64,000 nucleotides of DNA from a virus (IMGVR_UViG_3300025087_000034), one strand, 5' to 3'. Numbered from the stretch's first letter, positions 4,383 to 29,165 are shown. Numbers and translations: made by a program. The notes: generated by a model not told the origin, from the sequence alone.

Positions 4383-5199
4383 ATTACACCTCCAAGAATT
4401 CAGCAAGAAAATAATTAAAAATAAATAAACAAATTTAGTTTACATTTTTAGATATTTGTATTATATATGTAAATATGATTGGAGTATTGCCCCTCGCCCT
4501 CCTTTATAAATCTAGGGGCCGTTCACGAGAAACCTTTATGTCTTTTATGTTAAAAGAATAAATATATAACACATATAAGAAATAGGGTGTAAGTGATAGT
4601 TTTTTATGGGTTTTTTCGAAGAAAAAGAATCCATACATGAACCTATTTATGTATCTTACCTTGATCGGTAAAAATAGGGGTAAGCATATCGCCATAACGT
4701 AATGTCGTGAGTTTGTACACGCTAAAAGAATAGACATACTAATATATAATATTGAATCTATATTAATTCTAGGTTGATTTCTTTGTATATTTTCAAGTCT
4801 GTCATGAGAGTAAAGATGAAATCATACAAGTCTTGGTATACGTATAAAGAACTAGACTAGACCGAACTAGGGGGGATATTTTATATTGGGATAAGTTGTG
4901 TTAGCTTCCTATTGGTGATTTCACTTTTAGGTTTACTGCTATAGGTGTATTTATATAGTATTTATTTGTTTGTGGTAAACTTTTGTAGTGGAAAAACTTT
5001 ATGTAGGGGGCTATTTGTGTATCTATAGTAGAATTTCTAGGGTTTTATAGAAGGTCCGTTCTGTAGTCGTTTTAGGATGGTATGGGTTAGGGGTTTGGAT
5101 TTTTTCTTTTGCTGTGAAAATTCGGGGGTGGGTATTATAGTTGGTTTTTTACACGGTAGTAGGTTTCTATGGAGGGAGGGGAGAGAGCGAGGTAGAAAA

Positions 5200-5271
5200 T
5201 GGGCTCGCCGGGACTCGAACCCGGAATTCATCGGTTAAAAGCCGAGTGCGATGCCATTTCGCCACGAGCCC
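5200..5271 (-). tRNA. trnK: tRNA-Lys(UUU)
   Basis: Cloverleaf GGGCTCG/CGAGCCC, D-arm GCGA/TCGC, loop CTTTTAA, T-loop TTCGAGT; CCA is not encoded. Confidence 0.93.
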
Positions 5272-5275
5272 TTGA

Positions 5276-5347
5276 TGACCCTGCCGGGAATTGAACCCGG
5301 GTCTCTGGCGTGAAAGGCCGGTATCCTGGCCGCTGGACGACAGGGCC
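5276..5347 (-). tRNA. trnE: tRNA-Glu(UUC)
   Basis: Cloverleaf GGCCCTG/CAGGGTC, loop CTTTCAC, T-arm CCGGG-TTCAATT-CCCGG. Confidence 0.93.
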
Positions 5348-5405
5348 GTATAAGCCTTTTATACTCATGCTTAGGAGGTATTCTATGACGTGGCGAGGTG
5401 TTGGT

Positions 5406-5888
5406 CTAGAAGGGGTTGTTGTCGATGGAAGGGGAGGCTACTTCCTTCTGAGGTAACTGTTCCATTAGGGCCTGGAGTCGGGGGTCTTGGAGAAGGGCCT
5501 TCACCTGTTCGAGGTCGGTGAGGGCTGTTGGAGCTGCGGCTCCAGCAGGAGTTTCTTGCTGGCTCTTTAGACTGAGAGCACCGAAGCTCATGTGCTCCAC
5601 ACGTACTTCCCAGAAGTTCTTGTAGGTTCCGTCGTCTTCGTTCTTCTGGGAGAACGTTTTGATCCTACCGCGCACGAGCACTTCTTTGCCCTTTTTGCAG
5701 TGTTCGTTGGTTGCTCGGGCTCGAGGACCCCAGGTGATGCAGTTGATGACATCGGGATCCTTCTGTCCGGGCTCGTTCACCATAAGCCGGAACAGAGTCC
5801 TGTCGTCGGTTCCGTCTTCCTTGGACCCCTTGAAGAACATGGGGTCTGCGGCCAGCCTCCCACACACGATCGCGGTTGCCTCGTACAT
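5406..5888 (-). CDS. ssb: Single-stranded DNA-binding protein
   Basis: GRLAADP, CITWG..A, KGKEVLVRGRIKT OB-fold motifs and a C-terminal IDNNPF tail. Confidence 0.9.
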   Translation of the reverse strand: MYEATAIVCGRLAADPMFFKGSKEDGTDDRTLFRLMVNEPGQKDPDVINCITWGPRARATNEHCKKGKEVLVRGRIKTFSQKNEDDGTYKNFWEVRVEHMSFGALSLKSQQETPAGAAAPTALTDLEQVKALLQDPRLQALMEQLPQKEVASPSIDNNPF

Positions 5889-5963
5889 TTCTTTTTTCCT
5901 TTCTTGTGGGCCTTCCAGGCCCGTTTGTGCCGAATTTCTTTTGTTGTTTTTCGGCGTTGTTGT

Positions 5964-6347
5964 TCACGATTGTTCCGCAGAAAACTTTGCGGAATTGGGG
6001 TATTCTTCTTCTTCTTCTTTTGGTGGGGGTTGGCTTAGGAGTCCAGTTTCCCACTCTGTATTATTGTTTTTCTTTTCTTTGAGTTTGGGGTCTTGTGGGT
6101 CTGCTAGCCAGTTCCACAAGTGTTGGTTATTTTCCTTTTCTTTTGTAGGTTGTGGTTTCTGGTTTATTTCGTTGGGTTCTGGTCCTGTGGTGTCTGTTTG
6201 TGTTCTTGTGTCTGGTCCGTGTAGTTTTTCGGCTTCCTCCATAGCGTGTTGGTGTCGCCTATCTTCGTGGAACGCTACGAAGGCTGAAGCTATGCAGACC
6301 CCGATTACTAGCAAGGAAGCTGCTATTAGGATGGTTGGTATATCCAT
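5964..6347 (-). CDS. Hypothetical protein with an N-terminal transmembrane segment
   Basis: Hydrophobic N-terminus ILIAASLLVIGVCIASAFVAF; AGGAGG RBS. Confidence 0.65.
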   Translation of the reverse strand: MDIPTILIAASLLVIGVCIASAFVAFHEDRRHQHAMEEAEKLHGPDTRTQTDTTGPEPNEINQKPQPTKEKENNQHLWNWLADPQDPKLKEKKNNNTEWETGLLSQPPPKEEEEEYPNSAKFSAEQS

Positions 6348-6380
6348 ATTGTTCCTCCTTGCTGGTTTGGCAAAAAAGGG

Positions 6381-6554
6381 TTATATTTCTGTGTAGCGCT
6401 CGTAAAATTCTTTCCTTGGTAGACTTTCTGGGTAGATGAAGCCGTTGGGGCCCTGTCCTACTTCTACTTCGAAGTAGACCCTGTCTTGGGTTTCGTCGAA
6501 GACCAGGACGATTTCATCTGTGTAACGAATGTTACGATACTGTAGGGTCCTCAT
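6381..6554 (-). CDS. Hypothetical 57-aa protein
   Basis: Manual translation MRTLQYRNIRYTDEIVLVFDETQDRVYFEVEVGQGPNGFIYPESLPRKEFYERYTEI. Confidence 0.5.
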   Translation of the reverse strand: MRTLQYRNIRYTDEIVLVFDETQDRVYFEVEVGQGPNGFIYPESLPRKEFYERYTEI

Positions 6555-6762
6555 TTTTGGTTTCTTTCTTCGCAGATGGGGTTCCTATCTTAACGTTGAA
6601 GCCGTTCGACATCAAGTGAATCTTGACATCCTGTCCTTCGTCTTTGAGTTGACGATACAAGGACTTGGCCTCGTCGAAGGATTGGAAAATCTTTTCGACT
6701 TTCCAGTTCTTTTTTTGGTCAGTTTGTTTTGCTTGTGCTTTGTTTCTTTTGTTTTTTGGCAT
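6532..6762 (-). CDS. Hypothetical basic protein
   Basis: 76-aa ORF in the arm strand. Confidence 0.55.
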   Translation of the reverse strand: MPKNKRNKAQAKQTDQKKNWKVEKIFQSFDEAKSLYRQLKDEGQDVKIHLMSNGFNVKIGTPSAKKETKNEDPTVS

Positions 6763-6821
6763 CTATAGGTTTTTTCCTTGATTTTTTAGGGTTTTTGAGA
6801 AAATTCTCTTTATCTTTTTTG

Positions 6822-6895
6822 TGGGCCCGCCTGGGTTCGAACCAGGGACCTACCGGTTATGAGCCGGCGGCTCTGACCATCTGAGCTACAGGCCC
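6822..6895 (-). tRNA. tRNA with CAU anticodon, probably Ile2 (lysidine type)
   Basis: Cloverleaf GGGCCTG/CGGGCCC, GCCGG-CTCATAA-CCGGT anticodon arm. It lacks initiator features, and the GGCTCATAACC context resembles bacterial tRNA-Ile2. Confidence 0.88.
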
Positions 6896-7009
6896 AGGTG
6901 CTTGGATTTTTCCTTGTTTTATCAAGGGAGGCAATGTCCAAGCTACCTCGCTTTCATGTTTGTCTTTTCCTTTTTTTAAGTTTACGTCAAAAGTTCAGCA
7001 GAAAAAAGA

Positions 7010-7201
7010 TTAGTTTGTTTCTTTTGGAAGTGGTTGATATGCTTTTAGAAAGATCTCTTTCTTCATTCTAAAGAATTTTCCCATCAGATAGAAGATAAGC
7101 TTATCTTTTTTGATTGAAAAAAGGATTGGGGAGAATCCTCCTCGGAATTTCTTTCTTTTAGATTCACATGTTCTCATGTAGAATTTCCTCGATTGTTGCA
7201 C
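7010..7201 (-). CDS. Hypothetical protein
   Basis: 63-aa ORF in the arm strand. Confidence 0.4.
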   Translation of the reverse strand: MQQSRKFYMRTCESKRKKFRGGFSPILFSIKKDKLIFYLMGKFFRMKKEIFLKAYQPLPKETN

Positions 7202-7364
7202 GACCCCGCTCTTGTGGGTCGATGTGTACTTTTTTTCCGTTATCTTTGTTGGGGTCTAGTGGTTGGTGATTCTCTATGAGATACCATCCACCTAGGGTTT
7301 CTACCCACCAGGTGTTGTTGTTTTCTTGGTAGTGTAGGGTTCCCCGTGTTTGAAAGGCAAACAT
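7164..7364 (-). CDS. Hypothetical 66-aa protein
   Basis: Probable start MFAFQTRG at 7364, overlapping the stop of the upstream gene. Confidence 0.45.
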   Translation of the reverse strand: MFAFQTRGTLHYQENNNTWWVETLGGWYLIENHQPLDPNKDNGKKVHIDPQERGRATIEEILHENM

Positions 7365-7759
7365 TAGTAGTTTTGGTTCACAATGAAGAGAAAAAAGGGG
7401 AGTTCTTTTACTCTTCCCATGGTGAAGAGGCTGAGTTTTACTTCTCCCATCAAGATTCGAACAGTTTGGGCGATTCGAGGGAGCATTTCCTTCTTGTATG
7501 GGACTAAGAAGGCGACCGCTAAGGTAACTACCCCCTCTTTGAGACAGTGGTGGTTGACGATGATGGCAACTTCTCCCGTATTTACGGTAGTTATGGTTTT
7601 GCATCTCTTGGAGGGTTCCCACTTTGTGGGAGGAGGCGTGCTATGGGTGTGGGTTTTATGGTTGCATCCTGCTGCAGCGCTTATTACTAGCATCATGATT
7701 ACAGCAAGAACACCCGCAAGGCAAGCACAGGCTGCTTGTACCATCTTTTTATCTGGCAT
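7364..7759 (-). CDS. Hypothetical membrane/lipoprotein-like protein
   Basis: Long hydrophobic N-terminus ending AAAGC (lipobox-like). Confidence 0.55.
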   Translation of the reverse strand: MPDKKMVQAACACLAGVLAVIMMLVISAAAGCNHKTHTHSTPPPTKWEPSKRCKTITTVNTGEVAIIVNHHCLKEGVVTLAVAFLVPYKKEMLPRIAQTVRILMGEVKLSLFTMGRVKELPFFLFIVNQNY

Positions 7760-8022
7760 GTTTGTATCCTTTTTTTGGTTTCTTTTGACTCTTCATAAAT
7801 TCCTCAAAAAATTTCAGCTATGAATGGGTAAATCCGTTCTTATATTTGGGCGCTTATGTTTCTGTTTCTTTTCTTTTCTTTAGCGTAGGATTCATTTACT
7901 AATTCACGAATTTAGCAGAAAGATGGTAAGGTAGGATTTAGCAGTGGTAATGTAGTTAGCGAAGGGTTTCAGAGTGGGGGTGGCAGGGGGAGGAATCTCC
8001 CCCTGAAAAGTAGTATAGAAAT

Positions 8023-8057
8023 GCAGGAGTTAGGACACTTTGTGGCCTAACTCCTGC
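8023..8057 (-). terminator. Hairpin downstream of 8122..9285, probable terminator
   Basis: Perfect 12-bp stem GCAGGAGTTAGG/CCTAACTCCTGC; weak U-tract. Confidence 0.45.
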
Positions 8058-8121
8058 TACATTGGATTTTCTGGGGCTAGGGAGGCCCGAAGGGCCTCCC
8101 TAGTTTGTTTTGTTTGAGGTT

Positions 8122-9285
8122 TTATTCTTTGACCTTGGAGAGCCAAGGTCGTTTGCGTTCGGGGTGGGGGGTCCCTTGGACCCATCGAGGGAAGTACTTG
8201 CGGCGGGGCTGTGGGTGGAGGAGTTCGTGTTTTTCCTTTTCGGTGATAGGCCTCGGCATCCAAGGTCTGGTTGCTCGGCTTGGGGTGGAAAGACCTCGAA
8301 GGGGCTCCTCACCTCGAATTATCTTGTTAGCAAGTTTCATCAGCTTGCTTTTGTGGATAGGAGCTAGGATGGCTCCGACCCATGCTGTTTTATTTCCCAG
8401 CGCCTCCATTTTGCGGCATTGGGTGTTGTTGATATCGATAGCCTCGATTAGGCGAGTACGCGCTTTTTTGACTTGCTCGATGGACGAGCAAGACAATAGG
8501 TAGCTGTGAAGCCAGCGGTATCTGAGCTCCCGACTTCGGGTGAGGCTTTCTAGCCACCCGAAGAGGGGCTTGTTGGAGTCGTGAGCTTGTTCGGCTGCCC
8601 GTCGAGCTTTTTCCTCGCTGATGTAGCAATCACCCTCGGCTTCTAGCCGAGTCCTGGTTTGGTCGAGGACAACGTCCTCGCTTTCCACCACTGGGTGGAA
8701 AGAAATGTCGATGTCTTCGTCCGCGAAGGCACCGGACTTAATCCAGGCTGACCGAGTCAGTCCAGGTCGGTCGGTTTCGACTTCTTTCATTTTAGCATTG
8801 ACTGTTAGCGCACAATCAAATGCGTCTGCTCGGTCTGCACCGAGCGAAAGAAGTTCGATGAAGGTTACTCGGTGAATGGAAATTGGGTCCAATTCATAGG
8901 GTCCAATCTCGTCTCCAAACAGATTGGTGAGTTCTTCATTCACCATATCAAGTTCTTTGATGGGGGTTTCATGGAGATCGACAATCTCCATGTTGTAAGC
9001 GAGGTCTTGATCGGCCTCGCTAAACTGCATTTCGGCTTGGGAATAAAGCCGTTTTCTGCGAACGAACCCCCGGGGGGTTGTTTCCGATTCCATTCCGAAG
9101 GTGACTCCTTCTTCGAGGAGATCACCTGCCGGGATGGATACTCCCCAGCTGGTTTGGAGAGTTTTCCAAAGCTCGTCAAAGTTTGTCATGGGGAATCTCC
9201 TTGCGAGTTCCGCAGAAAAGGGTTTTTCTGCAGCCCCCCGAAACGAAGAATCCGTTCGGGGGAGGTTTTTATTTTCGGCTTCCAT
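8122..9285 (-). CDS. Unknown 387-aa protein, paralog of 13570..14652
   Basis: Shared blocks G.EIGPYE, LFGWL..RYRWL.SYLLSC, ARTRLIEAIDINN, AWVGAIL.P, RPWMP. Confidence 0.8.
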   Translation of the reverse strand: MEAENKNLPRTDSSFRGAAEKPFSAELARRFPMTNFDELWKTLQTSWGVSIPAGDLLEEGVTFGMESETTPRGFVRRKRLYSQAEMQFSEADQDLAYNMEIVDLHETPIKELDMVNEELTNLFGDEIGPYELDPISIHRVTFIELLSLGADRADAFDCALTVNAKMKEVETDRPGLTRSAWIKSGAFADEDIDISFHPVVESEDVVLDQTRTRLEAEGDCYISEEKARRAAEQAHDSNKPLFGWLESLTRSRELRYRWLHSYLLSCSSIEQVKKARTRLIEAIDINNTQCRKMEALGNKTAWVGAILAPIHKSKLMKLANKIIRGEEPLRGLSTPSRATRPWMPRPITEKEKHELLHPQPRRKYFPRWVQGTPHPERKRPWLSKVKE

Positions 9286-9361
9286 TTGTCTTTTAGCCGA
9301 AAATAAAAGCTGACACCGGACTTCCGACAGCAGGGTTACGTTGCATCGTCTAAACTCGCGA

Positions 9362-9389
9362 TTGACACAATATGTTAGTTAGTTAGTAT
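9362..9389 (+). promoter_or_regulatory. sigma70-type promoter facing the candidate ncRNA
   Basis: TTGACA-N16-TAGTAT. Confidence 0.55.
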
Positions 9390-9395
9390 AGTAGA

Positions 9396-9697
9396 TAATA
9401 GTATCTTCTACCTTAGGCCGGTGAATGGGAGACACCAAGCGAGTTGCGAGGGCAACGTTTTGACTGAGTTGGCAAGACCTTGCAGGCTTTGGTGCAAGGG
9501 AAGTGCCAACGAAGGAGAGACGTCACCCGAGTAGATTTCTTAGCTTGGTGTTGACCCCCCACGAATAGAAGTGAAGGCGCAGACTTTGCTTTGCAAAGTA
9601 TGTGACTGAACGGTGAGTGGGGCTTTTTTCACCGGAGTCCCTGGGGAGGGAATGCCCCAGGGACCTACCCGAGGCGCCTTGCGCCGAGGGTTTTTTT
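9396..9697 (+). ncRNA. Candidate structured ncRNA (~300 nt), unknown family
   Basis: Eight mutually nested helices plus a 10-bp hairpin and a GC hairpin with T7; no ORF (see findings). Confidence 0.7.
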
Positions 9698-10151
9698 CTT
9701 GCGTTAGCTTGACCGTAGGGTAGCTGGTTTCCAGCTAGTCCGAAGGACCGAGCGGAGCGAGCCCGGAGGGGAAGCGGCCAGATGCTTCATCTGGCAACGC
9801 CCAAATCTTCAATTATTTTTTCAACTTATACATCTCATTTTGGACATTATAAAAATATATATACACCACCATTAGTAAGTAAGAACAATACAAATGTATT
9901 AATAGTATCTTGTTTTTTTATTTCTCAATATATGTGTTTACTTGTGTAGGCTGAAGTTGAGAAGTAGCGAAGCGAGCAACGCGAGCGGAGCAGTTAGGCT
10001 GGCACGGGAGTTGCATAAGCAACTCACGTGTCAGCCGGAATAATATTGCACGACACGTGACGGCCCGTAAGGGCCGGCACGGGGCGTGCTACATTTTTGA
10101 AGTAAAAGAGTTAGGTTTCCTTCTTCTCCCCTCTTTTATCTGTTTCTTGTT

Positions 10152-10424
10152 TTAGCAGTCCAGGTCTACCATGACGGGGTGGCCGTATTGATGGGCAGGT
10201 GCCAACACAACCAGGTAGTAGCCACATCCCGGCTCGACAGCACTCTGGCTTACCCCACGCACGTCACAAGGAGTGGCCCTGATCGCTACTTTTACAGCGT
10301 CAGATGTTGACCAGTGTGCATCATAGTAGCTATGCATGTCGATCGCTACATTGTATGCCCACTTTCCGCTACCCTTTTTGAATAGGTTGCCTTCCACGAT
10401 ACTATCGTTGGTGCAATATCCCAT
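10152..10424 (-). CDS. Hypothetical protein
   Basis: 90-aa ORF with AAGGAAAAG leader. Confidence 0.6.
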   Translation of the reverse strand: MGYCTNDSIVEGNLFKKGSGKWAYNVAIDMHSYYDAHWSTSDAVKVAIRATPCDVRGVSQSAVEPGCGYYLVVLAPAHQYGHPVMVDLDC

Positions 10425-10448
10425 TGTTCTTTTCCTTTGTAGGAAGAA

Positions 10449-10479
10449 AAAATCCCACCCGAAGGGAGGCTGGGATTTT
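10449..10479. terminator. Bidirectional terminator-like hairpin
   Basis: AAAATCCCA-CCCGAAGGG-AGGC-TGGGATTTT; a sister element lies at 11454-11487. Confidence 0.65.
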
Positions 10480-10509
10480 GAAACGCTCTGTGTTTTAGTA
10501 GGACCTTTA

Positions 10510-10890
10510 TCATTTCAATGAGGGTAGTTCTACTATCCCATATTTGATAAATAGGGCGTTCAGTGCTTCTTTATGGGTCCTACCAGGGTAAGTTCCTGTG
10601 GTATTGTCCCATTTGCTGATGTAGGTGCGTGGTGAGGTGCAGTGGTCGTCTAGCCAATTATGGATTGTTGCGGCGATGACTTTTGCTGTATAGTAAGCTT
10701 TTTCGGTAGCGTCCCAATCACGATTGAAATCTTTCATGAATAGGGAGCTTCCAACCTTGCCTCTGTAGCCGGCTCGTTGTATTAGTAGCCTAACATACTT
10801 AGCGTTTTCCGGGATTAGGTCTCTCCTATCTCCTCGTAAACATTGATATATCTTTGGCGGTGCTTTTGAAAAGCAGGCTTTGTTTAGCAT
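10510..10890 (-). CDS. Hypothetical protein
   Basis: 126-aa ORF with AGGAAA leader. Confidence 0.6.
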   Translation of the reverse strand: MLNKACFSKAPPKIYQCLRGDRRDLIPENAKYVRLLIQRAGYRGKVGSSLFMKDFNRDWDATEKAYYTAKVIAATIHNWLDDHCTSPRTYISKWDNTTGTYPGRTHKEALNALFIKYGIVELPSLK

Positions 10891-10944
10891 TGTATTTCCT
10901 GAGGGCAGGGGTTATAGGGGGCTGGCAAGCTCTCTGAAGAATCT

Positions 10945-11124
10945 CTACTTGTACACCTCCACGGTCTCGTCGTTCTCGTGGAATACGAGGACCCCGCCCT
11001 TGGTTTTGAGATTGACCCAACCAACCTCGAGCTTGTCGAGGGTTGCGTCACCTTCGTACACTTGTCCGGTGATGTTGCAGGCTACCGTTCCGGGAACAGT
11101 AACCAGGTTCTTTTCTGTTCGCAT
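10945..11124 (-). CDS. Hypothetical 59-aa protein
   Basis: TAGGAG RBS; MRTEKNLVTVPGTVACNITGQVYEGDATLDKLEVGWVNLKTKGGVLVFHENDETVEVYK. Confidence 0.6.
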   Translation of the reverse strand: MRTEKNLVTVPGTVACNITGQVYEGDATLDKLEVGWVNLKTKGGVLVFHENDETVEVYK

Positions 11125-11133
11125 TTTGTTCTC

Positions 11134-11376
11134 CTATGGGTTTCTCACCAAGGTGAAAAACGGGTTGTGGGTAAGCCCCTTACCCCAAGCAAGGGCTTTC
11201 ACCCTTGCCTCGTTGTTCATTTCCACGCAAAGGTCGTGAACGACCTTTGTGAGTTCTGAACTAAATCCCCGCCTTGCTCGGGGGTCCAGAACGTTGGACA
11301 AGCAGCGCTCAAGGCGGTGCTTTTTTTGAAGGAGATGCTCGATTTTCATGTTGGCCTCCTTGCCCATATTGGGCAA
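11134..11376 (-). CDS. Hypothetical protein (start probably MKIEH after AGGAGG)
   Basis: ORF with a strong RBS. Confidence 0.6.
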   Translation of the reverse strand: MPNMGKEANMKIEHLLQKKHRLERCLSNVLDPRARRGFSSELTKVVHDLCVEMNNEARVKALAWGKGLTHNPFFTLVRNP

Positions 11377-11453
11377 AATGTTCAGAAATTCAGCAGAAAA
11401 GATTTAGTACCCGATGAGGTTGGAGGGCACTATTCTTTTCTGCTGATCATGGA

Positions 11454-11487
11454 AAAACCCAGCACGCCCGAAGGGCGGCTGGGTTTT
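11454..11487. terminator. Bidirectional terminator-like hairpin
   Basis: AAAACCCAGC-ACGCCCGAAGGGCG-GCTGGGTTTT. Confidence 0.65.
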
Positions 11488-11492
11488 AGGTA

Positions 11493-11660
11493 CTAGAGGT
11501 ATCCGGAGGCGTAGTAATCTGCCTCCATCGCTTCCAAGTCTTCCTGGTGGCCATCTGCCACCAAGAAAAAATCACAAGCTAGGGCGTACGCCCTAGTGTA
11601 TGATAATCTCCAGCGAGCACGGGGGCGGGGCCCTCTCCATCGGAGGTTCTTTTTCATCAT
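11493..11660 (-). CDS. Hypothetical 55-aa protein
   Basis: Manual translation MMKKNLRWRGPRPRARWRLSYTRAYALACDFFLVADGHQEDLEAMEADYYASGYL; it is preceded by the shared leader motif. Confidence 0.4.
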   Translation of the reverse strand: MMKKNLRWRGPRPRARWRLSYTRAYALACDFFLVADGHQEDLEAMEADYYASGYL

Positions 11661-11795
11661 CTTTTTTCTCTTTTTCTGCCCAATTTGGGCAGCAAGTTCG
11701 AAAATTCAGCAGAAAAAGGAATCTCCAGGGGTAGAAAGAGACAGGGGTTATAGGGGGCTGGCAAGCCCCCTAAGAAGGGGGTCCATCAGAACATG

Positions 11796-12278
11796 TTAGA
11801 GACCAACCTTGTCCATGCGAACCACCTCAATGCCCAGGCGCTCCGCAATGAGCAGGCCCTGGCCAGTGCCCCCCAGCCCCCATTGGTTGGGCTTGGGCCA
11901 GGCGTACACGAGAGAACTCCCCTCGATGATGAGGAAGTTCCGAGCGTGAAGCGCCCTAGCCCCACTACTCAGGCGGTCAGCCGCCGGGTGCAGCCGAACC
12001 GACTCCCTCGCGGCCTTGTGCTCAGGACCAAGCACAAGAACCTGGGCACCCAGCTTCTGAGCCTGGCCCACCCAGGGGGCCTCGTACGAGGCCCAGGGCA
12101 AGCACAGGGTAACCTGGCCACCGACCCTCAGGGCGCCAGCAGCGAAGGCCTGGTCGGCTCCTGTGCAGGCCCCTGTCCTCAAGGTCCATCCCAGCTCAGC
12201 TAACACCTCCCCGACTGCAGAGCAAGCGGTCAGTTCTGTAAGGGATAACCGTCGACTGCCAATACCTGCGTATTCCAT
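11796..12278 (-). CDS. SLOG-superfamily (DprA/Smf-like) protein
   Basis: YAGIGSR, LRTGACTGADQAF, LHARN, GGTGQG motifs; GAGGAGGTG RBS. Confidence 0.8.
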   Translation of the reverse strand: MEYAGIGSRRLSLTELTACSAVGEVLAELGWTLRTGACTGADQAFAAGALRVGGQVTLCLPWASYEAPWVGQAQKLGAQVLVLGPEHKAARESVRLHPAADRLSSGARALHARNFLIIEGSSLVYAWPKPNQWGLGGTGQGLLIAERLGIEVVRMDKVGL

Positions 12279-12357
12279 GGGGGCACCTCCTCACAAATTC
12301 AGCAGAAAAATAAAAAGGTAGGTATATAAAGAAAGGTAGATATTGGAGACAGAGGTG

Positions 12358-12801
12358 AGCGAAGGCGCGAGGAGTTGCGTAAGCAACTCTCGTGCCGCAG
12401 CGAAAGGGGTTGCAAGCCCCCTGACAGGCCGCTTTGGGCCTGGCGGGGGGCTTGCTCCGGCTGTCTTCTATATATAATAATGCAGATTACCTTAAGCGCG
12501 GAGGTAAGAGAGTTGCGTGAGCAACTATCTTACCGTAGCGAAATGAGCTTTGAGGGAGCGAAGGCGCGAGGAGTTGCGTAAGCAACTCTCGTGTCGCAGC
12601 GGAAGGGGTTGCAAGCCCCGTGACTGACCGACCGAAGGGAGGGCAGGCGGGGGGCTTGCTCGGGGCGAAGCGAGCGCAGCGAGCGGAGCGGGGAGCGGAG
12701 GCGCGAGGAGTTGCGTAAGCAACTCTCGTGCCGCAGCGAAAGGGGTTGCAAGCCCCCTGACAGGCCGCTTTGGGCCTGGCGGGGGGCTTGCTCCGGCTGT
12801 C
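12358..12801. repeat. Triplicated GC-rich hairpin cassette
   Basis: Exact 102-bp direct repeat at 12364-12465 and 12700-12801, a variant copy at 12557-12661, and a partial hairpin at 12502-12534. Confidence 0.92.
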
Positions 12802-13326
12802 CATTCTTTAATGAATACCCTACGATTTCGAGGCTGCCTAAAATTTAGCGCGGGCTAAAAAGAATTTAACACCTGAGCTTAAAATACTATCATATTATTC
12901 CATATACCAGAATAAGGATATTTCTTCAGACTATAAATACATGTTTGGGGATGAAAAAAGACATACCCACCAGTACAGGTCAGAATTGACTTTTATTTTG
13001 TTGGTCTATATTTATTGATTGGGTAGGATTGTTTAAACGTATTTTTGTTAGCCCGCCGAATAAAAACCTGGGTATTTAACAAAATTGTCGTCCCGTATAT
13101 ACGTCAACATAAACGTGTGTTGGTGTATAATGTCCTTACCTATCTTCCCCACTTATAACAATCCATAATGAATTGTACTTATTTTTGTGGCTCTATCTTT
13201 GGGTTTGGGGGTTATGTACAATCGTACCTTGTAAGAGAAAACCCAGGGATTCTAGGGATTTACAGTCCAGTGTGTCCGACTAGGTATGAGAGGGGCAGGG
13301 GTGGGGGCGTCCAGCCCCCTCCCTGT

Positions 13327-13524
13327 TTAGGTGTGGTAATAGTGTCCGTTTAGACACTCCAAAGTTTCCCTGTCTGGGGAATGTTCCAACCATTCCCCAC
13401 AAACAGGGCACTTCGCCGTGAAACCCACACCCAACCAAGGATCTACCCCTAACCAAGGATGTCCAAACTTGTACTCCTCGCACATGCGAGTCCAATTCTC
13501 AAACGAAATCAATTTCTTTTCCAT
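13327..13524 (-). CDS. Small Zn-ribbon-like protein
   Basis: CPVCG..ECLNGH motif; GGAGG RBS. Confidence 0.55.
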   Translation of the reverse strand: MEKKLISFENWTRMCEEYKFGHPWLGVDPWLGVGFTAKCPVCGEWLEHSPDRETLECLNGHYYHT

Positions 13525-13569
13525 GTTTCTTTTCCTCCCTAGCCCCCCCCGTGGGGGGGGCTGTTTGGG

Positions 13570-14652
13570 TTAGGGTAGCCAAGGACGTTTGTTCCTATCC
13601 GGCTTTACCAGACAAGGAACCAAAGACCGTTCCCTAAGAAGCTCATTAGTAAGTTTCATTAGGGATCTTTTCTGGCTTGGATTGAGTATTGCCGCAACCC
13701 AAGCCTCAGAGTTTTTCTTTTCTACCTTTCGTATCATCTTATTGTTTCGGTCAATGCTTTCGATAAGCCGTGACCTAGCAATCTTGACTTCCCTTTTTGT
13801 TTGGCATGACAAAAAATACCTGTAAAGCCAAACATACCTTTGTGAACGAAAGTTCACAACTTGGTCAAGATATCCAAATAGCTTTTTCTCACTATCTGGA
13901 GAATTGAGAAAAGCCTCAATTTGGGTTTGTTCTTCTATGTGTCCTTCCCGTTCCCTTTCCATTGGGGAAAGGGTAAAGTCCACCATTTCATCCTTACCCA
14001 AAATAATGGGCTCGAAACCTACTTTAGTAGGCTCAGAAGGTTCCGAACCATGCCATTCCTGTTTCAATCTTGCTTGTTTGCGGGAAAAGAAACGGAAATA
14101 CGAACGATGAAAGTGTCTACCTGCCCTAAGACTAGCGTCGCTTCCTATCTTAGAGTTAGCTTCATTTCGAGCCTTCCTGTAAAAGGATAACCAATACCAA
14201 TGTCCCCTTTCCTCCCTTGCTCTAACAAGGGCTTGGAAGTATAGGGCCCAATCAAGGGCCTGGTCAATCGAGGCCCCTAGGTCAATCATGGTGCGGTACT
14301 CTCCAGTATGATAGTCTACCTCGATTGTTTCGTATGGTCCAATGTCTGAACCATATATTCCCCATATGTCTGAAACATATGGATCCAAAGCCTTGGGATT
14401 GTCTTTTTCTGACAACCCTTCTAACTCATGGCTTTGGGTATTAAATACCCTGGTTGTTCTTTCATCTTCTATGTTGCACTCATGTCCTGAGTCCAACATT
14501 TCCCCCAAGTTTGTTTCCTTATTCCAATTAGAAGAACCATAGCAGGGTTCCTCCACTGTTTGTTCCCTTGTTTTTACAAGGGAAAGAAGAACGGAAGCAA
14601 TGAAGCCTTGCTTCCAGTATTCCTTTTTTCTCTTTCCTACGTATCCGTACAT
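13570..14652 (-). CDS. Unknown 360-aa protein, paralog of 8122..9285
   Basis: GSDIGPYE, LFGYL..RYVWLYRYFLSC, ARSRLIESIDRNN, AWVAAILNP, RPWLP. Confidence 0.8.
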   Translation of the reverse strand: MYGYVGKRKKEYWKQGFIASVLLSLVKTREQTVEEPCYGSSNWNKETNLGEMLDSGHECNIEDERTTRVFNTQSHELEGLSEKDNPKALDPYVSDIWGIYGSDIGPYETIEVDYHTGEYRTMIDLGASIDQALDWALYFQALVRAREERGHWYWLSFYRKARNEANSKIGSDASLRAGRHFHRSYFRFFSRKQARLKQEWHGSEPSEPTKVGFEPIILGKDEMVDFTLSPMEREREGHIEEQTQIEAFLNSPDSEKKLFGYLDQVVNFRSQRYVWLYRYFLSCQTKREVKIARSRLIESIDRNNKMIRKVEKKNSEAWVAAILNPSQKRSLMKLTNELLRERSLVPCLVKPDRNKRPWLP

Positions 14653-14951: not shown

Positions 14952-15323
14952 TTATCCGAAGTATTCTTTCAAGTGGCCGTTTTCGGCCATTGAAATGATT
15001 CTTCCATCCGTTCCGATAATGAAATGGTCTGTAAGGGTAAGGCCGTATTGAGTAAGAATAATGCTAACACGCCTTGTTGCTTTTATGTCTTGTGTTGACG
15101 GTTTAGCTTTCCCCTTGGGATGATTATGAATAAGAATAATGTATTGCGCTTGTAATTCCTTGGCTCTAGCAAGAATCTTTCCACAATCAAACCAGACCGT
15201 TTTAGTGGTACCCTCTGCTAGTTTTTCTAGCTTGACCTTCCCATTCCCAATGTATCCTACAAGAGCTATTTCTTTGCTCTCTTTGTGTAAAGCGTACCCT
15301 TTGATTTTCTCTAACAATTCCAT
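14952..15323 (-). CDS. radC: RadC-like JAB domain protein
   Basis: HNHP.G...PS.QD...T and DHFIIG JAB metal-binding motifs. Confidence 0.88.
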   Translation of the reverse strand: MELLEKIKGYALHKESKEIALVGYIGNGKVKLEKLAEGTTKTVWFDCGKILARAKELQAQYIILIHNHPKGKAKPSTQDIKATRRVSIILTQYGLTLTDHFIIGTDGRIISMAENGHLKEYFG

Positions 15324-21793: not shown

Positions 21794-22001
21794 TAAAGTA
21801 AAAATCCCATCTTCTTTGAAACAGAAGATACATTCAAACCATGTAAGCAATAACTATAAGGCCGGGGTGTTTATCTTTAAGGCTATTGATGATACTAGTG
21901 TTCAAATAGTGCTTGATAGTTTGTTAGAATATTGTTTAGAGAATGACTTAATGGATGAGGTCGGTAAGATGAATATGAAGGAGTTATTTGGGATAGAATA
22001 A
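21783..22001 (+). CDS. Hypothetical protein
   Basis: 72-aa ORF coupled to its neighbours. Confidence 0.55.
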   Translation: MMDNKVKIPSSLKQKIHSNHVSNNYKAGVFIFKAIDDTSVQIVLDSLLEYCLENDLMDEVGKMNMKELFGIE

Positions 22002-22648
22002 TGGAAGAAGTAAAATCAGGTATATATTGTATTTGTAATTTAGTTAATGGAAAACTCTATATTGGACAGGCGGCTGATTTTAAGCTAAGGTGGAGGGGCC
22101 ATATCAGTAGGCTTAATAGGGGGTCTAAGTATTCAAATCCCCACCTTCTAGCTGCTTGGAAGAAGTATGGTCCCGAAGCTTTTGTCTTTGAGATTATAGA
22201 ATATGTTCCTAAAGATAAAGAACTCCTTAAAGAACGGGAACAGTATTGGATGGACTATTTGAATGTGACTGACGATGGGGTGGGGTATAATATATTTCCC
22301 ACGGCGGGGTCACCTTTGGGAGTTAAGCGTACAGAGGAATTCAAGCAGAAAAGGTCTGAGGATATGAAGGGTGAAAACAACCATATGTGGGGCAAACACC
22401 CTGTTCGCTCGGAAGATTCCAAGCAGAAAATATCTGGTGAAAAAAACCCTATGTTTGGTCAGACAGGTGAAAAAAGCCCTAGTTATAAACATGCTAAGCG
22501 CCATGATTATGATGGAAAATCACAGACTCTGTCCTATTGGGCAAAAGAGTATGGTATAAATGAAACTACATTGAATTACAGGATAACTAAATTGGGGATG
22601 TCTATTGAAGAAGCCCTAACAACTCCCGTTAAGCGTAGAAGAAATTAG
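22001..22648 (+). mobile_element. GIY-YIG homing endonuclease with NUMOD3-type motifs
   Basis: SGIYCICNLVNGKLYIG, RWRGH, REQYW, KGENNHMWGK, C-terminal WAKEYG..ALTTP. Confidence 0.88.
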
Positions 22649-28229: not shown

Positions 28230-29165
28230 ATGGAAAATTCAACTAAAATCCCCGAGCGGTGCTTGGGGAGTATCAATTCAGGTATATACTGTATATGTAA
28301 TTTAGTTAACGGGAAGATGTATATTGGCAGTGCTTGCAATCTAAACAAGCGTTGGAAAGATCATAGAAGTTCATTAGTTAGAAGAAAGCACCATAGTCAC
28401 TATTTACAGGCTGCTTGGGATAAATATGGTGAAGAAAACTTTTATTTTGAAGTCCTAGAATTTGTAAATGATAAAAATAATCTTATTTCTAGAGAGCAGT
28501 TTTGGTTAGACTACGTATACACGTCTGATAGATGTATCGGATATAACATTAGTCCTATTGCTGGTAATTGTTTGGGTATTAAGCGCTCAGAAAAATTTAG
28601 ACGGAAACTATCTGAGGCTTTTAAAGGTGAGAAAAACCCTAATTATGGTAAGCCTATGTTGGAAGAGCAAAAGAAAAAGTTGTTTGATGTTAATAAAGGT
28701 AAGGTAGTGTCAGAGAAAACCAGACATAGGTTGTCTGAGGCCAGAAAAGGTAAAAAACATCCTAACTATGGTAAGCATCTTTCAGAGGAGACCAAACAGA
28801 GGATATCTGAGGCTAATAAAGGTGAAAGCCATCCTAATTATGGTAAACATTTTTCAGAGGAAACCAAGCAGAGAATATCCAGGGCCCTCAGAGGTAAGGT
28901 AGTGTCAGAGGAAACCAGACAGAGATTATCTGAGGCCCTTAAAGGTGAAAACCATCCTAATTATGGTAAACATCTTTCGGAGGAAGTGAGAAAAAAAATG
29001 TCTGAAGCACAAAGTCCAAAACGTTGGGAGTTTCTTGGAAAATCCCAGACATTAAGAGAGTGGGCTACAGAATACGGGTTTGATACAGACATAATTAATA
29101 ATAGGGTTAATACTCACGGGTGGAGTCTTGCACGCGCTCTTACTACCCCGATATATAAAAGGTAG
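28230..29165 (+). mobile_element. GIY-YIG homing endonuclease with multiple NUMOD3 repeats
   Basis: SGIYCICNLVNGKMYIG; repeated HPNYGKH.SEETK..ISEA.KG. Confidence 0.9.

Follow-up and report, generated by a model that had tools for sequence, protein, structure and literature searches.

A strand-specific family of three-way-junction modules, tandemly amplified in the early arm of an uncultured tailed phage

A 64,000-nucleotide stretch of viral DNA (IMGVR_UViG_3300025087_000034), which we call the window, carries six copies of a structured module of 110 to 140 nt, four of them in one tandem block. We have high confidence in what these modules are, namely, a lineage-specific and strand-specific family of three-way junctions that has been amplified in tandem locally. 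Our confidence in their mode of action, as RNA or as folded single-stranded DNA (ssDNA), is low. The best explanation, which we offer tentatively and at somewhat less than even probability, is that the cassettes are copies of a lineage-specific, structured small-RNA module of this size, read from the plus strand, that may act as a multivalent protein-binding RNA. An earlier note on this DNA had proposed an origin or primosome element and had named RNA as an alternative; we consider RNA at least as likely.

Genomic context of the modules

The window comes from an uncultured tailed phage with a T4-type large terminase, a clamp loader, three tRNAs, and homing endonucleases. Its closest terminases in GenBank phages are those of Bacillus phages, at 26 to 27% identity, and neither the terminase nor those flanking proteins that were tried had relatives in IMG/VR. 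The arm from about 4.4 to 16 kb is GC-richer than the rest (0.44 to 0.56 versus about 0.36 elsewhere) and carries small minus-strand genes. The features of this arm that matter here are the following.

5406-5888, minus strand: SSB gene, left arm
11796-12278, minus strand: DprA/SLOG-like gene, left arm, with the array in the gap on its right
14952-15323, minus strand: RadC gene, left arm
8122-9285 and 13570-14652, minus strand: paralogous orphan genes, each near modules
12295..12310, minus strand: leader motif shared by the minus-strand genes, here immediately preceding the DprA/SLOG-like gene's RBS

The gap that holds the array extends from the DprA-like gene to a small ORF at 13327-13524. The products of the two orphan genes are 29% identical (E = 2e-40), and their family has only 4 matches among 1.84 billion representatives. 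Neither Pfam nor PHROG gave a credible match for them (a single weak Pfam match fell far below the cut-off), the ESM Atlas yielded nothing for the orphan protein, and its AlphaFold model is unusable (pLDDT 40.7). The leader motif at 12295..12310 lies 30 to 35 nt from the base of the first module, c1, and a similar spacing (25 nt) is seen at 7908-7923 beside the most diverged module. At 11670-11718 and 11386-11450, this motif pairs with its own inverted copy, which would sequester the leader in a hairpin.

In the right arm, two GIY-YIG-type homing endonuclease genes (22001-22648 and 28230-29165) lie beside the clamp-loader gene. On the plus strand, the window has six copies of the E. coli-type Chi octamer, GCTGGTGG (21341, 40987, 42297, 45035, 56374, and 57450), and on the minus strand it has none; shuffles averaged 1.24 copies and never had more than 4. 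All six sites fall in the G-rich, plus-coding right arm, and their excess may be an effect of coding or skew.

Six copies in one orientation

The fold of a full copy is a three-way junction composed of a closing helix (P0), a hairpin (P1), and a long hairpin (P2); an earlier picture of two independent hairpins is corrected by the closing helix. All six copies are on the plus strand, in a single orientation and within one 5-kb stretch, where they occupy non-coding gaps of an arm whose genes read minus. The block at 12336-12805 comprises three full modules and one P1-only copy. A pattern search and the covariance model added two diverged copies, at 9994-10095 and 7978-8063, that lie beyond the region first described.

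12336..12475, plus strand: module c1, with P0 (12340-12352 paired with 12461-12473), P1, a junction, and a long P2; MFE -85.6 (plus) versus -65.0 (minus); 4 G·U pairs
12357-12461, plus strand: model core of c1; 125.5 bits
12496..12554, plus strand: partial module, P1 only, with an outer stem that is altered yet paired and a GTGA loop
12556..12665, plus strand: module c2, a variant whose P1 has two G·U pairs and whose P2 tip is replaced and longer
12665..12690, plus strand: tandem 9-nt tract, each unit a GCGNAGC word plus GA, with A, C, and G as the loop base
12693..12805, plus strand: module c3, equal to c1 over 12699-12801; 124.1 bits
9956..10100, plus strand: diverged module c0, with a P0 of about 12 bp, a 9-nt tract, P1, and P2; 84.3 bits
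7948..8063, plus strand: most diverged module (the 7978 module), with a P0 of 7 to 9 bp and an unrelated 9-bp P1
8076..8114, plus strand: intrinsic-terminator-like hairpin directly after the 7978 module, with a GC-rich stem of 12 to 15 bp and a T-rich tail
12806..13326, no strand assigned: AT-rich stretch without a long ORF, on the right flank of the array

The repeats had been reported as two exact 102-bp copies on either side of a variant copy. The identical block proved one base longer, at 103 nt (12363-12465 = 12699-12801, the copies being 336 nt apart), and the variant indeed lies between them, at 12556-12665 (104.8 bits; MFE -68.2 on the plus strand versus -46.5 on the minus strand). The partial copy also reported there is real as a P1-only unit (12496-12554), followed by an AGCGAAA junction motif that leads directly into c2. 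When the 17-nt core of P1 was allowed up to 3 mismatches, it matched the window 10 times, versus 0.17 matches expected. A single long ORF spans the array (12487-12804, minus strand), and it is without a Pfam or PHROG match.

To the right of the array, GC content falls to 0.42 over 12700-13299, versus 0.54 to 0.59 over the array itself. The AT-rich stretch there contains two good sigma-70-like promoters on the plus strand (12866-12893 and 13104-13131), and after both comes a GC hairpin at 13290-13330 that is related to the base of P2 (family D3); this may be another small plus-strand transcript.

Two perfectly identical 103-nt blocks so close together in a metagenome assembly, with the block absent from the JGI and IMG/VR collections scanned, could also be read as a collapsed or mis-joined repeat, with fewer true copies than the assembly holds. 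We regard such an artefact as very improbable. The array contains three distinct versions of the module (c1/c3, c2, and the partial copy), whose joints and spacers are unique, and there are diverged copies at two other loci. One of these is matched without a difference by what seems to be a separate assembly of this phage. That assembly, JGI contig L049, is 100% identical over 1998 bases, c0 included, and the only copy that it confirms is the one at 9994-10095.

Fold and covariation

In comparison with shuffles, a single unit had a folding z-score of -6.7 and the 481-nt block one of -10.9, with no shuffle folding equally well; the scores were -6.3 for c0 and -5.3 for the 7978 module. A covariance model, R1, was built from four copies, c0 included, and scanned over the 64-kb window. 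It recovered two copies from outside its training set, the partial copy (31.9 bits, E = 3e-5) and the copy at 7978-8063 (30.1 bits, E = 7.5e-5), and no other copy scored in the rest of the window.

The three helices are conserved in different ways. For P0, the sequences in c1, c0, and the 7978 copy are unrelated, and the helix forms in all three. P1 is a 14-bp stem with a 4-nt loop and has the purine word AGCGRAG on each side; its apical 7 bp and loop are nearly invariant in five copies. In c0, the apical 7 bp are as in the other copies, the loop is ATAA, and the outer stem has changed with its pairing kept (G·U to A-U and G-C to G·U). GNRA tetraloops closed by C-G cap both P1 (GUAA three times and GUGA) and the P2 of c0 (GUAA). 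P2 has about 19 bp and differs in sequence among c1, c0, and the 7978 copy, around a constant box, 5'-GAC-N / N'-GGC-3'. This box contains an A·G mismatch, and the covarying N and N' are A-U, U-A, and G-C. The GAC/GGC mismatch is thus retained both in c0, whose P2 otherwise has another sequence with a GTAA loop, and in the 7978 module, which begins with the motif AGCGAAG.

The partial copy had been described as having a completely different outer stem that still pairs. It does still pair, and 3 of its 7 base pairs differ from those of c1; these are at positions 3 to 5, where two changes are on both sides and the third is on one side (G·T to A-T). In the four-copy alignment, 96% of the cells were paired, versus 35 to 46% after the partners were slid, and four P2 pairs had changed on both sides. 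The evidence from covariation is real but thin because all of the copies are paralogues in one genome, and it rests on these six paralogous copies because the module has neither an Rfam family nor homologues beyond this phage. A further suggestion, that a GGGGTT/GCCCC pairing makes the module switchable, did not hold for the family. The pairing is possible only in c1 to c3, and a conserved switch is not supported since the 5' G-run is missing from both diverged copies, c0 and the 7978 copy.

The plus strand is the folding strand

That the element is built to fold as a single strand was supported by a comparison of the two strands. Over the six copies, there are 24 G·U pairs in the plus-strand folds versus 3 in the minus-strand folds, and with RNA parameters the plus strand is more stable in 6 of 6 copies, by 3 to 22 kcal/mol per unit. 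The preference is clear in c1 to c3 and in c0 with RNA and DNA parameters alike; with DNA parameters, the plus and minus values are -41.8 and -31.9 for c1 and -46.2 and -34.6 in another example. The plus strand is also purine-rich, which alone favors G·U pairs on it, and this tempers the strand argument without removing it. Because the plus strand is the folding strand, the element cannot be a duplex palindrome or cruciform that a symmetric protein reads, and a role on the minus-strand mRNAs is argued against.

Searches for relatives

The module fold matches nothing in the catalogues searched (Rfam, IMG/VR, JGI metagenomes, and GTDB genomes). Rfam 15 gave nothing credible at either gathering or permissive thresholds. 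Its only recurrent weak match, Twister-P5, reached 22.9, 17.6, and 17.4 bits, where the threshold is 37.6, with an alignment that breaks P1, and was rejected. An exact P1-core pattern had 42 matches in IMG/VR, all of them chance matches inside coding sequence of the ELRKQL type, and a longer gapped pattern had 26 in the JGI metagenomes and GTDB genomes, of which only L049, from the same phage, was real. A blastn search with 11500-13600 found no match in GenBank phages.

Several known kinds of element were set aside on their defining features. The hammerhead core is excluded by the absence of CUGANGA, group II domain V by the wrong bulge and the absence of the AGC triad, and an integron attC site by the absence of the GTTRRRY core. 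The differences between copies are not adenine-specific, as they would be in the TR/VR of a DGR, and no RT was seen nearby. The spacing of 137 to 199 nt is irregular for a ToxI-type antitoxin array, and the ORFs tested had no toxin-family match. As a Chi-like signal, AGCGG is too short a word, and it occurs 33 and 25 times on the two strands.

A putative plus-strand small RNA as the best explanation

In the explanation that we prefer, the modules would be encoded opposite to the surrounding early protein genes and would be transcribed from the plus strand. P0 would join the ends of the module, and P1 would display the conserved apical hairpin with its GNRA-type loop. P2, whose long GC-rich hairpin has a single conserved A·G mismatch, could together with the U-rich stretch after it provide a 3' end or terminator. 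The conserved AGCGRAG purine words stand on both sides of P1, and the 9-nt tract multiplies them; a phage or host protein may bind through these repeated words and the invariant P1 tip. Tandem amplification at 12336-12805 would then mean a higher dose or valency of the protein-binding RNA, and the RNA may thereby serve as a decoy or scaffold.

Signs of 3' ends on the plus strand are consistent with this proposal. A U-run follows c0, and c1 and c0 were flagged as terminator-like on the plus strand; c1 and c3 have weak U-tails only. The hairpin after the 7978 module (8076..8114) has a U-run after its stem in the plus-strand reading and none in the minus-strand reading. In addition, a separate plus-strand non-coding unit at 9362-9697, 300 nt from c0, has a sigma-70-like promoter in the top 1% and a U7 terminator; plus-strand small-RNA genes therefore exist in this arm. 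Right after the terminator of this non-coding RNA candidate, at 9698-9800, there is a plus-strand block of three hairpins with the same GAGCGGAGCGAGC word (z = -3.4).

Upstream of the modules themselves, a position weight matrix (PWM) found no sigma-70-like promoter above background. The scores were 1.6 for c1, 8.1 for c0, and 9.3 for the 7978 module, compared with 12.0 for the neighboring non-coding RNA and a background median of 7.2. The tract also speaks against RNA, since its GCGNAGC words equal a published DNA mini-hairpin consensus and the same tract is present in ssDNA viruses. To our knowledge, a tandem GCGNAGC tract has no meaning in RNA.

The T4 species 1 and 2 RNAs are the classical phage-encoded stable small RNAs. 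Like such RNAs, of which the candidate at 9362-9697 is the nearest example, the modules are stand-alone, strongly folded, and non-coding, lie among early genes and tRNA genes, and have G·U-rich helices, GNRA loops, G·A mismatches, and a terminator-like 3' hairpin. Unlike them, the modules are repeated three-way junctions in six copies, four of them tandem, without a recognizable promoter and without an Rfam 15 family.

The 9-nt tract recurs in unrelated viruses

The linker before c3 had been described as a chain of mini-hairpin words, and it is: GCGAAGC begins at 12665, GCGCAGC at 12674, and GCGGAGC at 12683. Tandem Repeats Finder gave a period of 9 and 2.9 copies. The tract forms the 5' junction of c3, and a near-identical tract at 9966-9991 precedes the P1 of c0.

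Outside this phage, an unrelated IMG/VR contig contains the 25-mer of 12665-12689 without a mismatch (L069, 8809-8833), inside a 494-bp gap, and 24 of 24 bases matched in Dulem virus 38, within the loop of an 11-bp hairpin. A tract specified at 19 bases was found in 17 IMG/VR contigs of roughly 13 lineages, versus 0 contigs for a single control pattern of the same composition and period in which the hairpin was disrupted. Most matches are non-coding and lie where only short frames are open.

Contigs L073-L088; PP511596, 43105-43128; PQ006584, 2245-2275: tract loci elsewhere

Neighbors of the tract include packaging genes (portal or small terminase; L073, the L078 group, and L081) and replication genes (primase in L087, a G2P-type rolling-circle Rep in L082, and a CRESS-type Rep in L075/L077), and in PQ006584 the tract lies in a microvirus intergenic region. 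A search of 72,556 plasmids with the 41 nt at 12660-12700 gave chance-level matches only. Folding around the tract at 13 other phage loci revealed no shared structure; the tract is thus shared and the module is not, as the regions around the other tracts are otherwise unstructured. Judged against one control, the recurrence supports a putative DNA-level meaning for the tract.

Folded single-stranded DNA as an alternative

The tract brings in a second explanation, which we think rather unlikely, that the modules are strand-specific ssDNA signals. The unwound plus strand would fold, and its mini-hairpin caps would resist SSB and recruit a primase or an RNA polymerase, after the models of the G4-type oric, RSF1010 ssiA, Frpo, and the N4 hairpin promoters. 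The mini-hairpin consensus GCGNAGC / GCGNNAGC has been linked to the G4 origin, RSF1010 ssiA, and the N4 promoters (PMC13037366). The P1 tip (GCGTAAGC and GCGTGAGC) and the words of the tract fit this consensus, so that the DNA-type mini-hairpins pointed out in the earlier note stand as a match of the loops to it (PMC13037366). The better folding of the plus strand with DNA parameters, the recurrence of the tract with its Rep and primase neighbors and its microvirus intergenic locus, and the missing sigma-70 promoter of an RNA gene all favor ssDNA. So does the setting: all copies are on the template strand, close upstream of minus-strand genes, the neighboring genes encode SSB, DprA/SLOG-like, and RadC proteins, and 500 bp of AT-rich sequence adjoin the array.

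The same explanation meets several difficulties. The host of the modules is a dsDNA tailed phage, with a terminase and a portal-type arm, and we know of no single-stranded entry stage in tailed phages. In other phages, the tract loci are otherwise unstructured and their contexts are mixed (packaging, tail, and replication). The 4 to 5 G·T pairs per module are costlier in DNA than in RNA, and the plus-strand terminator after the 7978 module is left unexplained. Finally, there is no -35/-10 pair in the stems, there are no hairpins of 5 to 7 bp with a 3-nt loop, and neither DnaA boxes nor iterons are enriched.

Compared with the complementary-strand origin of G4, St-1, and alpha3, with RSF1010 ssiA, and with the N4 promoters, the modules have the same GCGNAGC / GCGNNAGC words capping helices (PMC13037366). 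They share with these signals a multi-hairpin, strand-specific build of 100 to 140 nt and the adjoining genes for SSB and ssDNA handling, but they are in a dsDNA phage, the N4 geometry is absent, and there is no shared sequence. The earlier note had mentioned the N4 virion-RNAP promoters, and this comparison failed on geometry. Promoters of that type have a 5- to 7-bp stem and a purine-centred 3-nt loop; the GCGNAGC words form only 2-bp stems locally, with no significant fold, and P1 has 14 bp and a 4-nt loop. The position of N4 promoters on the template strand upstream of early genes is reproduced here, the copies being plus and the flanking genes minus. No giant virion RNAP of the T7 family was seen among the window ORFs scanned.

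In the leading regions of conjugative plasmids, Frpo forms a long hairpin, and -35 and -10 boxes are rebuilt in its stem (PMC11541004). Like Frpo and ssi elements, the modules are folded elements on the template strand, shortly upstream of SSB or anti-defence-type early genes; in contrast to Frpo, their stems do not rebuild a -35 and a -10 box. A promoter of this type was rejected, as the module stems are GC-rich and without a TATAAT-like box. The best site touching a 3' arm, TTGCTC-15-TATAAT at 12452, scored 7.7, about the background median.

Among the features of a replication origin, DnaA boxes are as frequent as chance would predict and do not lie near the array, and no short iterons were reported in 11500-13500. 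The AT-rich flank is present, together with a weak sign change of the GC skew near 13.0-13.3 kb. For the left-arm genes, the plus strand serves as template, and it would be the lagging-strand template if the G>C skew reflects replication. Along the plus strand, the skew is positive over most of the minus-coding left arm (4600-13300), negative from about 13.0-13.3 kb, and positive again from about 16.3 kb, and its sign change coincides with the AT-rich stretch beside the array.

A bolder version, which we judge improbable, combines these points. Three-way DNA junctions on the template strand, capped by GCGNAGC / GCGNNAGC mini-hairpins, would be docking signals on the unwound early arm for a primase or for the phage's unusual single-chain RNA polymerase, and the bare 9-nt tract would be a general, so far undescribed initiation word of tailed phages, microviruses, and G2P-type and CRESS replicons.

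An intergenic repeat family as an alternative

The distribution of the copies suggests a third explanation, which we hold to be unlikely: the modules would be an intergenic repeat family of the REP/BIME, BOX, or PeSL kind, spreading in the non-coding gaps of a variable early arm. Such repeats would act, if at all, in cis, as insulators, as processing or stability hairpins on early transcripts that read through, or as recombination substrates for gene shuffling. Consistent with this, copies are found only in gaps between same-direction early genes of the GC-rich small-gene arm, and their build is modular, with P1 alone in the partial copy and a hairpin like the base of P2 alone at two sites (11755-11771 and 13304-13320, family D3). 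The 11702 site aligns with the c1 site as though P1 had been inserted, similar AGCGAAG / AGCGAAA words flank P1, and the identity of c1 and c3 points to a recent local duplication.

Gene shuffling in this arm is directly visible. Compared with the window at 11698-11816, L049 (1-460) has an extra 284-bp stretch, a cassette with a small minus-strand gene, and this insert is directly flanked on each side by one copy of the 16-nt leader motif (plus-strand AAATTCAGCAGAAAAA). The early arm shuffles genes in the manner of PeSL elements, which are documented in T4-type phages (PMC2839356, PMC4122927), and the break points are the leader motif, not the modules. This placement of the indel edges counts against a repeat family of the PeSL kind, as does the single orientation of the modules, with the better-folding strand opposite to the mRNAs. 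No transposase or RAYT-like gene was found among the neighbors tested, and the 64-kb window has no further copy. Moreover, the P1 tip is conserved between copies that have otherwise diverged, which suggests specific recognition rather than neutral spread.

PeSLs resemble the modules as repeated hairpin-bearing cassettes between small early genes in a hyperplastic region, but they are short, lie on the coding strand, and carry an early promoter (PMC2839356, PMC4122927), whereas the modules are 110 to 140 nt long and lie on the opposite strand. The modules were therefore rejected as PeSL cassettes, which would themselves bound the indel that is here bounded by the leader motif.

REP/BIME elements are palindromes of 20 to 40 nt in alternating orientation with an associated Y1 transposase. 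The modules share with REP/BIME and pneumococcal BOX repeats a modular build of GC-rich imperfect palindromes clustered in intergenic gaps, a varying number of sub-modules, and hairpins with strand-specific mismatches. They differ in that they have one orientation, no RAYT-type gene found, a 5-kb cluster rather than a genome-wide spread, and a three-way junction. A REP/BIME family with RAYT was rejected on the single orientation and on the neighboring ORFs tested, which have no transposase domain.

Discussion

Jumbo phages have many unexplained non-coding islands. The array described here shows cleanly a fold that is multi-copy, strand-specific, and covarying and has no catalogued relative, beside genes for SSB, a DprA-like protein, and RadC. 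The recurrence of the GCGNAGC-GA tract in unrelated viral contigs, as compared with one control pattern, is a lead for a shared DNA signal. If the modules act as DNA, a giant dsDNA phage would join ssDNA phages, N4, and plasmids as a setting of hairpin-directed priming or transcription. If they act as RNA, the reading that we prefer, a tandemly amplified small-RNA module would join the short list of phage-encoded structured RNAs and would suggest a dosage or decoy mechanism early in infection.
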